Origin: an uncultured Chloroflexia bacterium
Lineage (GTDB): Bacteria > Chloroflexota > Limnocylindria > Limnocylindrales > CSP1-4
Reading direction: 5' to 3'
DNA: 64,000 nucleotides
Assembly (NCBI GenBank): GCA_963721015.1
Contig: CAVRHM010000006.1
Span: forward strand, 914,154 to 978,153
Of the stretch, positions 1,205 through 44,080 are shown in pieces. The notes under the pieces are model-generated. The model did not search any database. It had not been told where the DNA came from and was given only the letters and a program-made list of their open reading frames with translations. A program made the position numbers and the translations under genes. The first letter of the stretch is position 1, and every line of letters starts with the position of its first letter.

Positions 1205-1248
1205 AGAAACGACGGTGACCGCCGAGCCATGCGGCCCGGCGGTCACCG
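1205..1248 (-). terminator. Intrinsic terminator after pilin 2
   Basis: Perfect 12-bp inverted repeat CGGTGACCGCCG/CGGCGGTCACCG followed by TCGTTTCT on the minus strand. Confidence 0.65.
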
Positions 1249-1554: not shown

Positions 1555-1591
1555 GGAAAACGAAAGACCGCCGGTCGGGTGACCGGCGGTC
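1555..1591 (-). terminator. Intrinsic terminator after pilin 3
   Basis: Perfect 11-bp stem GACCGCCGGTC/GACCGGCGGTC, 4-nt loop, followed by TTTCGTTTT on the minus strand. Confidence 0.75.
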
Positions 1592-1614
1592 CGCCGTTGC
1601 TGGTTGGCTTCGAC

Positions 1615-38756: not shown

Positions 38757-40203
38757 TCAGGCCTGTTCGGGCGCCGCCGCGGTCGCCGACGCGGTGGCCG
38801 GCAGGGCGGGCACGGCCGGGATCGTCGTGGCCGTCGGGCTCGGGTCGGGCGCTCCGCCGGTCATCCGCGCAGCGGCCTGGCCGATGAGCGGGATGGGCCG
38901 CGGCTGGACGGTCCGGCCGGGGTCGGCCACGCCCTCGACGTGGTGGGTCCGGACGAACGCATCGACGACGACCGGGTCGAACTGGATGCCGGCGAACTTG
39001 CGCAGCTCGGCGAGGGCCTGCTCGGCGGTCAACGGGGTCATCCGGTACGGGCGGGCCGCCGTCATCGCCTCGAAGGCGTCCGCGACGTGGAGGATGCGCG
39101 CGAGCTTCGGGGATCTCGTCGCCGATGAGGCGGTCCGGGTAGCCCGAGCCGTTGTACCACTCGTGGTGGTGGCGGATGATCGGCAGCTCGGGCGCCAACT
39201 TCGTGACCGGGGCGATGATCTCCGCGCCCAGGACCGGGTGCGCGTTCATGATCATCCGCTCCTCGCGGTTGAGGCGCTCCTGCTTGAGCAGGACGTTGTC
39301 CGGTACGCCGATCTTGCCGACGTCGTGGAGCAGACCGCCCCACTCGAGCGCTTCCACCTCGGCGTCGTTGACGTGCATGACTTGCCCGATGTCGACCGCG
39401 ATCTCCTTGACCCGGACGCTGTGCATCGCCGTGAACGGATCGCGCTTGTCCACCGCCTCGGCCAGCGCGCCGATCGTCTGGGTGAACATCTCGCGCATCT
39501 CGACGAAGCGCCGGTATGCCATCCGCGTCGAGTACAGCGGGATGGCAAACAGAGCGGTTGCCCACCACTGCACGACGTAGATCACGGACATCAACCACGC
39601 TAGCGGCGCGAGGGCAAAGACGCCGCCCATGATTCCTCGGATGTCGCCGATGAACACGTCTCGGGGCGATTGGCCGGTTCGCAGCCCGATTGCGGTGGAA
39701 ACGAGCGCCAAGTTGCCCACGATGAAGATCACGGCTGCGGCCATTGCCGACGCGAAGTCAGACGCAACACCCGGAAGGTACTCAAGCCATACGTGGCGGG
39801 TCACACCGGCAACGACCGCGGGTAGAACCAGTGCCGCGTGGTTGGCAAGAGTTCCATACCAGGGGACCTTTCCCCTGATCTCGCGAAGCTCCGTGGTGCC
39901 GATTAGTGCGACCCAGCCCGCGACGGCAGGCCCACCGAGGAACATCGAGCCCATGATCGGAGCGATCGCGACAGCCTGTTGTGTGCCTCGGGGCAACTGA
40001 ACAGGGAACGCCGAACTCACGAGTGTGAGCCCGATCCAATAGGCAACCCCCAGGGATGTCGCCACGCCCGCTGGGAGTGTGCGGGCCCCGTCGAGCTGGA
40101 TCGCGATAGCTGCAGACGGTTCAAAGAGAATTGTCGAGGCCATTAGCGCCAAGGCGCCAATGGCCACGACCGCGATGATGTACAGCTTCAATGAGACCGG
40201 CAT
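38757..40203 (-). CDS. Membrane-bound HD-GYP domain protein (putative c-di-GMP phosphodiesterase), frameshift near 39105
   Basis: About 6-7 N-terminal TM helices; DKRDPFTAMHSVRV, LLHDVGKIG, HHEWYNGSGYP, ILHVADAFEAMTAARPYR, QFDP. Confidence 0.9.
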
Positions 40204-40276
40204 TGCTGCCTCGTACGACCCAATCCCCGCTTCACTCTAACCCGTTGTCAGACGGCGCGGTAATGGGACATCCGTA

Positions 40277-40366
40277 CTAGAAGCCTCTAAGCGAAGCCCC
40301 CCCAGCGAGTGCGATCATCGCCACGCTAGAAAGCGTGATTGCGATACGCATAAGTTTGGCCTTCAT
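40277..40366 (-). CDS. 29-aa signal-peptide-like precursor MKAKLMRIAITLSSVAMIALAGGASLRGF
   Basis: Basic n-region, hydrophobic h-region, LAGG then a short tail; first gene under the riboswitch. Confidence 0.7.
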   Translation of the reverse strand: MKAKLMRIAITLSSVAMIALAGGASLRGF

Positions 40367-40450
40367 CGTGGTAGCTCGACTACCAGGCCTTGGCGGACTC
40401 GGGTGCCACGCTCGTTCCTCCTTCGCGGCCTCCGTGCTCCGAAAAGCACG

Positions 40451-40480
40451 AAAACCGACCAGACTCATGGTCGGTCGGTT
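40451..40480 (-). terminator. Intrinsic terminator (riboswitch expression platform)
   Basis: Minus strand AACCGACCGACC-ATGAGTCT-GGTCGGTTTT; the stem uses the 3' end of the aptamer. Confidence 0.7.
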
Positions 40481-40565
40481 GCACTACTTGCTCCGCCTCA
40501 CCCTAAGTGCCCATTTCAGGTGAGGCATCGGCGCGTCCGAGCGTCTTGACGTTGCTTCCTAGTAC
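40470..40565 (-). ncRNA. c-di-GMP-II riboswitch aptamer
   Basis: Minus strand GGAAGC...GCCTCACC-TGAAATGGGCACTTAG-GGTGAGGC-GGAGCAAGTAGTGCAACCGACC. This matches the class-II landmarks GGAAAC / AAAU-GGGCACUU / GAG-UAGUAGUGCAACCGACC, including GGGCAC-GTGC pseudoknot complementarity. Lies upstream of an HD-GYP gene. Confidence 0.8.
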
Positions 40566-40587
40566 TGGGGTACTAGCAAGTGGCCGG

Positions 40588-40617
40588 ACTTTACGGATGC
40601 CGGAGTAGTACGGTCAA
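40588..40617 (-). promoter_or_regulatory. Putative promoter of the riboswitch-peptide operon
   Basis: TTGACC-N18-TAAAGT just upstream of the aptamer. Confidence 0.5.
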
Positions 40618-40636
40618 TACGGCACCTTACCTATCC

Positions 40637-43600
40637 CTACAGGGATTCGAGGGGGATTGGCTCTGTGCCGAGCTCGTCGCGAACGTAATTGGCATAGTGT
40701 CCGTACTGTTCGGCGGCAGCCGCGTGAGCTCCCGTCGCTCGGTACAGGCGAAGCAGCGCAACCTCGACCTGCTCAGCATCCGGATCCACTTCTAGGGTGC
40801 GTCGGGCAAGCGCAATCGCGCGATCGTAGTGACCGGATCCGAAGTCAGCCCTGACCGCGCGTTCCAGGATCTCGAGGTAGGCGGCATGGAGACCGTCGCG
40901 GTACGCACTCGACCACTCTTCGTACTCGAAGTCCATCGCGAAGCGGCCACGATACAAATCCGCCAGAGAGGCTATGTCGGTTGGGCTCGAATGGGCCGTG
41001 ATCTGGCGGATGAAGACTCGGCACTGGATCGACCTGCTTGTCACCAACTCCGGATCCAACCACACGACGTCACCGTCGTGATGAACGTATCCCGGTGACA
41101 AATCCTCCGCAAAGTCTTCCTCAAATACGCGGCGGAGGAAGTAGATGGTCTGGTTAAGCGAGTTGACAGCGACATCCGGATCCTGTTCAGGCCAAAGAGC
41201 ATCGAGGACTTGGTCTCGGGTCGCGGAGGAATTCGGTCGCGTCAGGAGGAAGCAAAGTAATGCTAAGACTTTGCGCCGAATCGAGGACCCTGCGACCTCT
41301 GAGTCTCCGATCCGGATGGCCGTTCGGCCCTGGTCTTCCACGAAGACTCGATCTGCAAGCCGGCGTGCGAGAGTTCGGCCAAGCATGGCCACGTAGCGCC
41401 GCCGCTTGACTCCTCGGGCGAACTGCCGAAGGAGGGCGATGTCGGCCTTTTCGCCGATCTCCTCGAGCATCTCGGCGGCTCGGAGGCGCTCGGCTCTGGG
41501 TTCTTGCACCAGCTTCCGCAGCACGGCGCGCCAGCGGTCTGGATGAAGGCGCGCCGCCCGCAGGGCCACATCTACGGCTTCATGTGTCAGGTCGTCGAGA
41601 CGATCGGCGACAAGGTCTGCGACCGCTGTGATGTGCCATAAGTGGTCATGTCCGATGACTACCAGGGATCGCGAAGCGGCTTCAGGGCTGGTGGCAAGTG
41701 CCTGAAGGATCTCGCCGATGCGCCTGTTCGCATAGAGGCCCGATCCAGTCGCGGACTGCTGAGCTTGAGTGAGGATCCCACGACTGTGGCCCGCGTCAGT
41801 GAACAGGTCGCATTGGGCGACAAGCAAGTCTCGACTCGACGCGATGCCGACCATCGTCGCGACACCTTCGGGGTATTGCCTGAGAATGGCGCGAGCCTCA
41901 GTTGGGCGGCCATCGCGAAGCGCCATGCGTGCGGCGGTCACCACCCATAGCCGACGTTCCGCAACCGACTGGGTCGACAGGTCGCCGACGCGTTCAAAGA
42001 GCTGAAGCGCTGTATCGGGGTTGCCCCATCCATCGAACGCTTCCGCGGCTTCGAGGAGAACGTCGTTCTCGAGAGCGCCGCCGCCGCTCAAGAGGCCGTC
42101 GAGGAGCGCCAAGGCCTCCGAGAGTCGACCGAGTCGTGCCAGGACGGATATGAGGAGCGCCGTGGCTGCGTTCCGTTCGAGCTTGGACGACGTGTCGCCG
42201 AACGCTTCCAATGCCTCTCCAACCTCGCGCTCAGCATCGGCAAGTCGGTCCTGTTGGACCGAGATCGTGGCGAGGTTGTACATCGAGACACCAAAGTGAT
42301 GGACCTGCGCATCTCGCTGGTCCTTGGCCATCGATCGGAGCAGTCGGATTAGGGACTCGATGTCGGCAGCTGTCTCGAGTCGGAGGAGCGCAGCGGAGGC
42401 TCTCGCGATCGATCGCAGGTTGGGGTCGGAAGTCGTCGACTCAAGGTGGTCGGCCAGTACGAGTGCCCGCTCCCCGTATCCATAGTTGAAGCTGACAGCG
42501 AGCAGATTCAGCATCGCGTGGTCGCGTTCCACAGGGCCAGCGGAGGCGGAGTCCAGCACCGCCTGGGCTGCGGCCGTTGCTGCTTCGAAGTCGCCCTCCT
42601 GGTAGTCGATCCGCCCTTTGATGAGTTGTGAGCCAGGCGGCATGATTTCGCTTGGGGCGTCGACGACGAAGGCTGCGGCGAGCGAATACTGGGCGTTGCC
42701 CATGATGGTCGGGACCGCGTCGTTGATGACGTCCAGCATGGTCTGGAGGTCGTGGGCCTCGCGATAGTGGTGGGCCGCGACGCGCCAGTCGGTCGAGGCT
42801 GCGGCCGCGCCGGCCCGACGGTGGAGATCGTCGACGTCAGCATCCCCATCCGCGGATCGGAGGCGGGCCTCGAGGAACTCGCGGACGAGCGGGTGATAGC
42901 GAAGATGGGTCCGCGGCCCGCCGGACACTCGACTCAACAACGTCAATCGCTCGGCGTCGATCGTCAGCCGGGCGACCTCCGGTCCCGGTTCGTCGCTGAC
43001 CACCTCGGCCATCTCCGGCGTAACGATCTGAAGGACCGACGTGGTCATGAGGAAGCGCTGGAGGTCCTCGGGCAGGTCGCCGACGACCTCCTCGGCGAGA
43101 TAGTCGTAGAGGTCACTGTCCGCGCCGCTCAGGTCGCGCACGAATTGGCGGATCTCCCTGGGCGTGCGATTGCGCAGGGCGGCCTGGACGAGCTGCAAAG
43201 AGGCGATCCACCCCTCCGTCCGGACGGCTAGATCGCGCAGGATGTCCGGCTCGATGGACCGGCCGTAGGTCTCGGTGAACAGCAGGGCCGTTTCGCTCGC
43301 GTCGAACCGGAGGTCATCCGTGCCGACCTCGGCGACCTCGCCGACCGCGCGAAGGCGCCCCAGCGGTATCGTCGGCGCGCGACGGCTGGCGAATGCGATC
43401 GTCAACCGCTCTGGCGCTCGAGCCACCAACTCCCGAGCGACGTAACGCGCGTCCGGTGCGTCGTCGACGAGGTGGAAGTCGTCGAAGATCAGGAGGGCGC
43501 CACCCTCTACCATCGCCGACAGTTCGCGGACGAACGTCTCGACGACAGCGTCTCGGGTCGGCCCGCCGACGCCGATCTCGGCTAGAAGGGAGGCCGTCGT

Positions 43601-44080
43601 CGGCGCGAAGCCCGGCTCATGCTCCCGGCCGGCGGCGACAAGGTGGTGGAGGATCGAGGTCCAGTCGCGATCGTCCGCATCCAGTCGATACCAGAGGGTC
43701 CGGACGCGGGTCCGACGCGAGAAGTCGGCGAGCAACGTCGTCTTGCCGAAGCCAGCGTCAGCGATGAGCAGGATGACCCGATGGTGGAGCTTGGCGGCCA
43801 GCCAATCGAGCAGTCGTGGTCGCGCCAGCGTCTCGTCACGGAGCGCGGGCGGCTGGACCTTCGCGAGCTGGACGGGGAATCCGACGACCTCGTCGCGCAG
43901 GGGTCCACCTCTTCCAAGCGGGACCACGCCAGACGCCGGGCCCATGCCGACGTCGGCTGGCGAGCGACTCACCGACGCCCGGGCTGACGCCAGCTGTCCG
44001 AGCGGCGCGAACGATACCGAGCGCTCCGGAGGAGCGTCAACGGAGGCATCCAGGACTGTGCGTTCCCGCATCTTCGACAT
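40637..44080 (-). CDS. MalT-like STAND ATPase-TPR regulator with C-terminal SARP (winged helix + BTAD)
   Basis: ADAGFGKTT Walker A, LIFDDFH Walker B, TEGWIASLQL, YHPLVREFL; C-terminal RRKVLALLCFLL...DQVLDALWPE, LYRGRF, VDPDAE...LLRLY. Confidence 0.88.
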   Translation of the reverse strand: MSKMRERTVLDASVDAPPERSVSFAPLGQLASARASVSRSPADVGMGPASGVVPLGRGGPLRDEVVGFPVQLAKVQPPALRDETLARPRLLDWLAAKLHHRVILLIADAGFGKTTLLADFSRRTRVRTLWYRLDADDRDWTSILHHLVAAGREHEPGFAPTTASLLAEIGVGGPTRDAVVETFVRELSAMVEGGALLIFDDFHLVDDAPDARYVARELVARAPERLTIAFASRRAPTIPLGRLRAVGEVAEVGTDDLRFDASETALLFTETYGRSIEPDILRDLAVRTEGWIASLQLVQAALRNRTPREIRQFVRDLSGADSDLYDYLAEEVVGDLPEDLQRFLMTTSVLQIVTPEMAEVVSDEPGPEVARLTIDAERLTLLSRVSGGPRTHLRYHPLVREFLEARLRSADGDADVDDLHRRAGAAAASTDWRVAAHHYREAHDLQTMLDVINDAVPTIMGNAQYSLAAAFVVDAPSEIMPPGSQLIKGRIDYQEGDFEAATAAAQAVLDSASAGPVERDHAMLNLLAVSFNYGYGERALVLADHLESTTSDPNLRSIARASAALLRLETAADIESLIRLLRSMAKDQRDAQVHHFGVSMYNLATISVQQDRLADAEREVGEALEAFGDTSSKLERNAATALLISVLARLGRLSEALALLDGLLSGGGALENDVLLEAAEAFDGWGNPDTALQLFERVGDLSTQSVAERRLWVVTAARMALRDGRPTEARAILRQYPEGVATMVGIASSRDLLVAQCDLFTDAGHSRGILTQAQQSATGSGLYANRRIGEILQALATSPEAASRSLVVIGHDHLWHITAVADLVADRLDDLTHEAVDVALRAARLHPDRWRAVLRKLVQEPRAERLRAAEMLEEIGEKADIALLRQFARGVKRRRYVAMLGRTLARRLADRVFVEDQGRTAIRIGDSEVAGSSIRRKVLALLCFLLTRPNSSATRDQVLDALWPEQDPDVAVNSLNQTIYFLRRVFEEDFAEDLSPGYVHHDGDVVWLDPELVTSRSIQCRVFIRQITAHSSPTDIASLADLYRGRFAMDFEYEEWSSAYRDGLHAAYLEILERAVRADFGSGHYDRAIALARRTLEVDPDAEQVEVALLRLYRATGAHAAAAEQYGHYANYVRDELGTEPIPLESL

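Follow-up and report, generated by a model that had tools for sequence, protein, structure and literature searches.

The 64,000 nucleotides (nt) of DNA described here, referred to throughout as the window, come from an uncultured soil member of the Chloroflexota (Limnocylindria) whose genome assembly comprises 3.39 Mb in 8 contigs and is 77% 'complete'. On its minus strand the window carries an aptamer of the class-II riboswitch family for cyclic di-GMP (c-di-GMP), followed by two very small open reading frames (ORFs) and by a gene for a membrane-sensor HD-GYP phosphodiesterase. The explanation that best accounts for this locus, to which we give a probability of about 0.65, is a class-II ON switch that controls the two micro-ORFs and probably the HD-GYP gene as well. 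All coordinates are window positions, the locus is read on the minus strand, and its features are collected in Table 1.

The initial annotation, made from the sequence alone, had proposed a c-di-GMP-II riboswitch on the reverse strand, and a covariance-model search of Rfam bears this out. The c-di-GMP-II model, RF01786, matches positions 40547..40464 over its full length (model positions 1-84 of 84) with 65.6 bits and E = 2e-12, the Rfam gathering score used as cut-off being 53.5 bits. This is the sole Rfam match in the window and the sole RF01786 match in the genome, and a search of the whole genome reproduces it. The model of the GAG variant, RF03169, gives the same aptamer just 45.5 bits. 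By these sequence criteria the segment is a genuine canonical class-II aptamer, which presumably binds c-di-GMP. Two of the landmarks that had been named for it are in place: AAATGGGCACTT is seen in the sequence as the loop of the 8-bp stem GCCTCACC/GGTGAGGC, and GAGCAAGTAGTGCAACCGACC is present. A third, GGAAGC (40559..40554), turned out to belong, as its 3' arm, to a covarying 5' hairpin distinct from the aptamer. The supposed insertion of ~25 nt between the 5' end and the main stem disappears in the covariance-model alignment, which places the real 5' GGA in UCGGACGCG (40540..40532).

Conservation of the aptamer was assessed by aligning 90 distinct orthologous leaders and counting pairs helix by helix as a covariation test; the leader statistics given below refer to this set unless another number is stated. 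The main hairpin of the aptamer is 93.9% paired, with six of its eight pairs changing on both sides, and P2 is 98.1% paired. The core of P1 joins UCGG (40540..40537) to CCGA (40474..40471) and adds one G-C or G-U pair; support for P1 is limited to these inner 4-5 bp, the outer P1 of the Rfam model being 23% paired. The pseudoknot between the loop GGGCAC and the 3' GUGC retains its GCAC:GUGC complementarity in 90/90 leaders, and because it is invariant it shows no covariation. Equally invariant is the ligand-contact segment GUGCAACCG, which holds GCAACCG. In PDB 3Q3Z, two adenines and a guanine of GCAACCG read and intercalate both guanines of c-di-GMP, and the A-U pair that starts P2 takes part as well (PMC13715770). 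At the sequence level, the Rfam alignment contains the A that follows GG as well as the U within A-N-U.

The 3' end of the aptamer is shared with a second structure, the putative intrinsic terminator hairpin 1. The 5' arm of hairpin 1 is the aptamer segment AACCGACCGAC, comprising the ligand-contact junction and the whole 3' strand of P1, and the aptamer and hairpin 1 are thus mutually exclusive. The 3' arm, GGUCGGUU, is located outside the aptamer. It does not vary, whereas the loop and hairpin 2 next to it do so freely, a pattern expected of an arm that has to remain complementary to an aptamer segment which cannot itself change. Pairing in hairpin 1 amounts to 94.4%, and its folding free energy of -14.7 kcal/mol is close to the mean of -15.3 in the 89 orthologous leaders for which energies of the platform hairpins were calculated. 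In the window, AACCGACC (40480..40473) is complementary to GGTCGGTT (40460..40453), and TT and then CGTGCTTTTC lie downstream. Five to seven of the nine nt after GGUCGG are U in 87 of the 89 leaders. The U residues of the tail stay U where their partner in hairpin 2 is G, so that U-G is found in 22-35 sequences and C-G in only 2.

Several observations point to the sign of the switch. Calculated without tertiary or ligand terms, the terminator state reaches -29.6 kcal/mol and the aptamer secondary structure -15.2 kcal/mol; the terminator state being far stabler, OFF (hairpin 1 formed) would be the default. The sole hairpin that is then followed by U residues is hairpin 1, the competitor of the aptamer. 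Fold predictions leave the Shine-Dalgarno (SD) sequence of the first micro-ORF for the most part unpaired, whether the RNA is in its free state or the aptamer is forced. This anatomy fits an ON switch working by anti-termination, because the aptamer-competing hairpin alone has a U tail and the SD is open in both states, and an ON switch of this type is the best-supported and probable sign. Neither an OFF design nor one that sequesters the SD is evident, because hairpin 2 lacks a U-run and the SD is open in both states; the SD-sequestering translational switch was rejected on the latter ground. An ON switch in which the ligand sequesters the 5' arm of a terminator had already been proposed in the initial annotation, and it is still the best-supported reading of the anatomy, one that rests on sequence analysis only.

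In the mechanism that we propose, transcription would start from the TTGACC/TAAAGT promoter, and the 5'-terminal hairpin would be made first and the aptamer next. When no ligand is present, AACCGACCGAC would pair with GUC-GGUCGGUU to give the -14.7 kcal/mol hairpin, followed by UUUUCGUGCUUUUC, and RNA polymerase would terminate to leave a leader RNA of ~130 nt. When c-di-GMP is bound, AACCGACCGAC would be held in P1 and the binding pocket, no terminator would form, and the polymerase would read through (ON). The released 3' arm could then pair with the conserved GGCCG, extending hairpin 2 to 14 bp. Read-through would lead to expression of the micro-ORFs of 9 and 29 amino acids (aa), and probably also of the genes for the membrane-sensor HD-GYP protein, a DUF5317 protein and an MFS protein, which would place c-di-GMP under negative feedback.

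A number of points weigh against this interpretation. Hairpin 1 is nearly invariant among the leaders and hence has no support from covariation, and the consensus scans by which promoters and terminators were sought in the window left its site unflagged. The run of T that had been noted after the alternative 3' pairing is modest: while the complementarity of AACCGACC and GGTCGGTT stands, the uninterrupted U-run is only 4 long, two of these U lie within the stem, and each of the four can also be explained by pairing in hairpin 1 or hairpin 2. With the stem extended through the first two U, four of the next eight bases in the window are U. In a pure termination model the conserved extended form of hairpin 2 has no role. 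As for the HD-GYP gene, a TAGAGT hexamer ~31 nt before its ATG is preserved in the majority of the 84 spacers aligned and could be an independent promoter, one C too many in a C4 run (39112..39109) disrupts the reading frame, and the closest solved relative of the encoded HD-GYP domain is a cGAMP-specific phosphodiesterase (5Z7C).

Similar tails do occur elsewhere in the window. The two clearest native terminators, strong terminator-like hairpins of 12 and 16 bp at 1592..1565 and 1248..1213 (minus strand), carry the interrupted tails TTCGTTTTCC and TCGTTTCTGG, to which the tail of hairpin 1, UUUUCGUGCUUUUC, is comparable. These two hairpins serve as a local standard for how a terminator looks in this host.

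Table 1. Features of the riboswitch locus, in order of transcription (window positions).
Feature	Position	Strand	Details
Putative sigma-70-type promoter	40588..40617	-	-35 TTGACC (40617..40612), 18-nt spacer, -10 TAAAGT (40593..40588); consensus scan
5'-terminal RNA hairpin	40555..40580	-	CUUGCUAGUAC-CCCA-GUACUAGGAAG (DNA CTTGCTAGTAC-CCCA-GTACTAGGAAG); conserved across the clade
c-di-GMP-II aptamer	40464..40547	-	P1, P2, 8-bp hairpin GCCUCACC/GGUGAGGC, pseudoknot GCAC:GUGC, ligand-contact GCAACCG
Hairpin 1, putative intrinsic terminator	40453..40480	-	AACCGACC-GAC / GUC-u-GGUCGGUU
U-rich tail	40441..40454	-	UUUUCGUGCUUUUC; read from the sequence
Hairpin 2	40426..40457	-	Short form 40452..40431 (9 bp, UUCG loop); extended form 14 bp, CGGUUUUCGUGCUU/GAGCACGGAGGCCG
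Shine-Dalgarno sequence of ORF1	40417..40423	-	AAGGAGG; near-invariant in 90 leaders
CGAGCGU, spacer and GU of the ORF1 start codon	40408..40414	-	Complementary to the P1 5' strand ACGCUCG (40544..40538)
ORF1, 9-aa micro-ORF	40380..40409	-	GTG start; M-APESAKAW-stop
ORF2, 29-aa small hydrophobic protein	40277..40366	-	MKAKLMRIAITLSSVAMIALAGGASLRGF
TAGTAC and TAGAGT	40234..40279	-	TAGTAC 40279..40274, overlapping the ORF2 stop; TAGAGT 40239..40234; 84-spacer alignment
Membrane-sensor HD-GYP phosphodiesterase gene	38757..40203	-	Pfam HD_5, E = 1.7e-22; frameshifted

The genes directly downstream of the leader are two conserved small ORFs that were absent from the initial annotation. ORF1 follows the pattern M-x-P-[ED]-x(2-3)-K-[GAPTS]-[WFY]-stop in ~70 orthologous loci. 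Its codon periodicity is weak, and its end stays aromatic, W being replaced by Y or F (TGG to TAC or TTC). The last codons (AAG GGC TGG TAG) are conserved at third positions too, which hints at a constraint at the RNA level or on specific codons. Three loci (L071, L076 and L084) have a longer ORF1, in which the C-terminal TKG[WF] unit is repeated in tandem and in frame, ~170-260 nt after the aptamer core; the repeat types among these loci are ...VTKGW x4, ITKGW x3 and SSVTKGF x3. Expanded in this way, ORF1 looks like a multi-core peptide precursor.

ORF2 is conserved in 75 loci and shows strong codon periodicity, with entropies of 0.85, 0.51 and 1.60 at codon positions 1, 2 and 3; comparison with Pfam and NCBIfam gave no family match. 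The C-termini of both micropeptides can be described as [KR]-G-aromatic ([WFY]). Inspection of the tails of ORF1 and ORF2 by eye found mostly KGW with RGF and a few loci with KGF/KGF or KGW/KGW, with no clear co-variation. Riboswitch, ORF1, ORF2 and HD-GYP follow one another in this order in practically all loci examined. The direct targets of the riboswitch are probably the two micropeptide genes, with the phosphodiesterase gene, which comes third, as a probable co-target.

The presence of an HD-GYP gene downstream, as initially annotated, is confirmed by a Pfam match in a 527-aa ORF. The encoded domain contains the motifs LHDVGK and HHEWYNGSGYP, the latter with N for the usual D. The gene starts 73 nt after ORF2 and is followed by the DUF5317 and MFS genes. 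Its product has a multi-pass membrane N-terminal domain of ~240 aa, for which Pfam returned only a weak, sub-threshold match to MASE9 and NCBIfam nothing. The catalytic domain of an orthologue with 79% identity aligns with V-cGAP3 (5Z7C, E = 1.1e-30) and with PmGH (4MCW, E = 5.5e-26), sharing with both the HD and HHE...GYP motifs; the protein predicted here differs from these two enzymes in its membrane N-terminus, in the N for D and in the frameshift.

Beyond the frameshift the protein continues as PKLARILHVADAFEAM... in another frame to 38757. Split frames at homopolymers are typical of long-read assembly errors. The orthologues are intact (460-486 aa), and a number of GGDEF matches in this genome show the same kind of split, into adjacent frames, so that an assembly error is a more likely cause than decay into a pseudogene. 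In the set of 80 orthologue loci (57-79% identity), an aptamer motif lies upstream of the HD-GYP gene in 74, usually ~300 nt away, and five of the six loci without one have at most ~400 nt of upstream DNA. The relatives of the protein come from metagenome-assembled genomes labelled Chloroflexia, Chloroflexota or Candidatus Limnocylindrales/Limnocylindria. Judging from these sequences, the riboswitch leader and the operon are kept throughout the Limnocylindria.

Whether the phosphodiesterase shares the fate of the micropeptides is where the most serious alternative arises. The TAGAGT hexamer resembles the TAnAGT -10 element of the leader promoter, and the HD-GYP gene may therefore have a promoter of its own, with TAGAGT as a possible internal -10 element. 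The riboswitch would then control the micropeptide genes alone, and HD-GYP, DUF5317 and MFS would be expressed mainly from the internal promoter, with no direct feedback, an arrangement compatible with the ON sign. The conservation of the hexamer speaks for it. Set against this, no clear -35 element accompanies TAGAGT, the spacer is only 73 nt long, no terminator-like hairpin with a U-run lies between ORF2 and HD-GYP, and the four elements keep their order from locus to locus. We regard this arrangement as unlikely on balance, if the one to be taken most seriously. Negative feedback on the phosphodiesterase is plausible, because the genes lie on the same strand, their synteny is invariant and the spacer is short. 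The initial proposal that c-di-GMP induces an HD-GYP operon and so limits itself is in this sense plausible, but it had to be qualified in that the micro-ORFs come first, the TAGAGT hexamer is conserved and the gene is frameshifted.

A different alternative rests on hairpin 2, which exists in two forms. The short form (-10.6 kcal/mol) is 98.8% paired, with six of nine pairs changing on both sides. In the extended form (-20.2 kcal/mol), CGGUU from the 3' arm of hairpin 1 pairs with the conserved GGCCG (40430..40426), and this form competes with the terminator for the terminator's 3' arm. Extended hairpin 2 is 98.7% paired, with changes on both sides at six of its pairs, and none of 500 shuffles attains the values observed. 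It ends 2 nt before the SD and brings the two full-length conformers to within ~5 kcal/mol of each other. Hairpin 2 was rejected as a canonical terminator, no U-run being found in the bases downstream of it (CGAAGGAGGAACGAG).

These properties could be put to use by a translational ON switch that acts mainly on the full-length mRNA, hairpin 1 being an energy-balancing helix instead of, or besides, a terminator. The ligand-free state would combine hairpin 1, short hairpin 2 and a helix ACGCUCG:CGAGCGU at the start codon of ORF1; the ligand-bound state would combine the aptamer with extended hairpin 2 and leave the start codon free. In favor of such a device, extended hairpin 2 is conserved, the remaining energy gap could be surmounted by ligand binding, and the outer 5' strand of P1 is conserved though it is without a 3' partner inside the aptamer. 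Moreover, the minimum free energy fold of the free state holds the start-codon helix, and the start codon is predicted to be unpaired 1-3% in the free state versus 13-38% with the aptamer forced. The helix itself, however, shows no covariation: it is 86.1% paired in the leaders versus 85.3% in shuffles, and its pairing is lost in up to 17 of the 90 sequences per position without compensation. The SD, furthermore, is open in both states. A switch that acts chiefly in this way is improbable. The start-codon helix is a weak candidate for a second, translational layer of the same sign, weak because it does no better than shuffles and is uncompensated where broken. Another helix, GCCGCG/CGUGGC, which would enclose the SD, was set aside as not convincing, being 74% paired only.

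The same three helices could also be arranged as an OFF switch. Hairpin 1 would then be an anti-terminator or anti-sequestrator, and the ligand would free GGUCGGUU for the 14-bp extended hairpin 2 just 5' of the SD, which would lower expression either as a terminator devoid of a U-tract or by hindering the loading of ribosomes. The chain of aptamer, hairpin 1 and extended hairpin 2 does have the classical topology of an OFF platform, and the last helix is strongly conserved and ends next to the SD. Yet no U follows extended hairpin 2, the U-run being placed after hairpin 1 instead, the SD is unpaired when the aptamer is forced, and among known class-II riboswitches those with terminators are ON switches (PMC11477304). 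We consider an OFF switch very improbable. Least probable of all is that the natural ligand is another cyclic dinucleotide, such as 3',3'-cyclic GMP-AMP (3',3'-cGAMP): an engineered c-di-GMP-II variant with a single-nucleotide deletion binds cGAMP isomers (PMC13715770) and the best solved relative of the HD-GYP domain is the cGAMP-specific V-cGAP3, but the canonical model fits the aptamer better than the variant models do, the GCAACCG contacts that read two guanines are retained (PMC13715770), GGDEF genes are abundant in the genome, which also carries three c-di-GMP-I riboswitches, and PmGH, an HD-GYP protein for c-di-GMP, is nearly as good a match.

The c-di-GMP-II family is common in the Chloroflexota, as RF01786 exceeds the cut-off in 43 of 301 genomes of the phylum and, with weaker matches (E <= 0.001) included, is found in 54 of the 171 genera sampled; the remark that class-II riboswitches are mostly described from Clostridia thus understates their range. 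Among 36 genomes of the same genus, 25 have a match above the cut-off. GGDEF gives 19 matches in the host genome, which further contains two HD-GYP genes and three class-I c-di-GMP riboswitches; the host clearly uses both c-di-GMP signalling and RNA sensing of c-di-GMP. The class-I riboswitches (RF01051, 58-70 bits) lie at G000:C7:199309-199383, C6:175232-175314 and C6:156483-156557. A search of the literature on Limnocylindria and c-di-GMP found no papers.

Variant motifs of the same clan also occur in the genus. The c-di-GMP-II-GAG and c-di-GMP-II-GCG families (RF03169 and RF03170, clan CL00127) share the fold of the window aptamer, which differs from them in keeping the canonical GCAACCG pocket. 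In same-genus genomes, RF03169 matches loci L027, L028 and L030, and RF03170 matches locus L029, with 60-74 bits and at position 1501-1586 in each. At least two of these motifs stand ahead of genes with signal-peptide-like N-termini. The host genome contains one sub-threshold GAG-like match (G000:C7:177570-177659).

The riboswitch is in itself ordinary and detectable from databases, and ON switching by class-II anti-termination is already known. In Clostridioides difficile, the riboswitches of class II serve as transcriptional ON switches, apart from one exception (PMC11477304). Those of the type IV pilin operon, CD2831 and CD3246 belong to the same aptamer family (RF01786) by covariance model (PMC11477304), and as far as can be read from sequence only, the locus described here appears to share with them a terminator in which the 5' arm coincides in part with the aptamer's 3' end and a ligand that favors read-through. 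Differences lie in the host, a high-GC Chloroflexota lineage, in the targets, two micropeptides and an HD-GYP phosphodiesterase in place of adhesins and pili, and in two further conserved elements, a 5'-terminal hairpin and a third helix, extended hairpin 2. The locus thus mainly adds the Limnocylindria and a new gene context to the range of a known element. As a test case for c-di-GMP feedback in a lineage of soil and fresh water that is uncultured, it is clean, highly conserved and single-copy. The third conserved helix is unexplained by simple terminator models.

A parallel for the micro-ORFs comes from the CD1980.2 family of C. difficile, small membrane proteins that are under class-I c-di-GMP OFF riboswitches and promote sporulation (PMC13724677). 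There, as may be the case here, a c-di-GMP riboswitch directly controls very small membrane-associated proteins by way of premature termination (PMC13724677). The present riboswitch belongs to class II and is probably an ON switch, the peptides have 9 and 29 aa with [KR]-G-aromatic C-termini, and a phosphodiesterase gene follows; the peptides of the locus have no recognisable sequence relationship to the CD1980.2 family. Proteins of the CD1980.2 type are the nearest precedent for the micro-ORFs. The interest of the locus lies in good part in these two conserved micropeptide genes, whose products would be the first to come under the control of the riboswitch, in parallel with the small membrane proteins of C. 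difficile (PMC13724677).

It is tempting, if speculative, to go further and to see in the locus a clade-wide, undescribed module in which high c-di-GMP calls up two micropeptides that act as ligands or subunits of the co-encoded HD-GYP, DUF5317 or MFS proteins. One peptide would be soluble, of 9-11 aa and sometimes with 3-4 TKG[WF] repeats, and the other, of 29 aa, would be membrane-anchored; the leader would work as a device of three helices (aptamer, terminator and extended hairpin 2) controlling termination as well as access to the start codon of ORF1. We hold this doubtful. If it were true, second-messenger homeostasis would operate through a peptide layer, not through simple induction of a phosphodiesterase.

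Upstream of the aptamer, the putative promoter suggests a transcription start near 40584..40580 (~40581). The genus alignment shows conservation of both its hexamers and of a box upstream of them, GGATAGGTAAGGTGCCGTATTGACC, and the -10 element is conserved as TAnAGT across the 90 leaders. The box (40636..40612), nearly invariant in the genus, begins directly after the stop codon of the upstream neighbor, a gene for a 1147-aa AAA/TPR/winged-helix/BTAD regulator (44080..40637), and reaches into the -35 hexamer; it is a candidate binding site for this regulator.

Between the promoter and the aptamer lies the 5'-terminal hairpin, in which 87% of cells are paired and five of 11 pairs change on both sides. 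Because it contains many G-U wobbles, pairing in RNA is favored over a DNA palindrome, and its role could be that of a stabiliser of the mRNA 5' end. The heptamer CTAGTAC occurs three times at the locus, in both arms of this hairpin (CTAGTAC/GTACTAG) and at the stop codon of ORF2, and all three occurrences are conserved in the clade. Where the stop codon of ORF2 has moved, a separate CAGTAC is retained.

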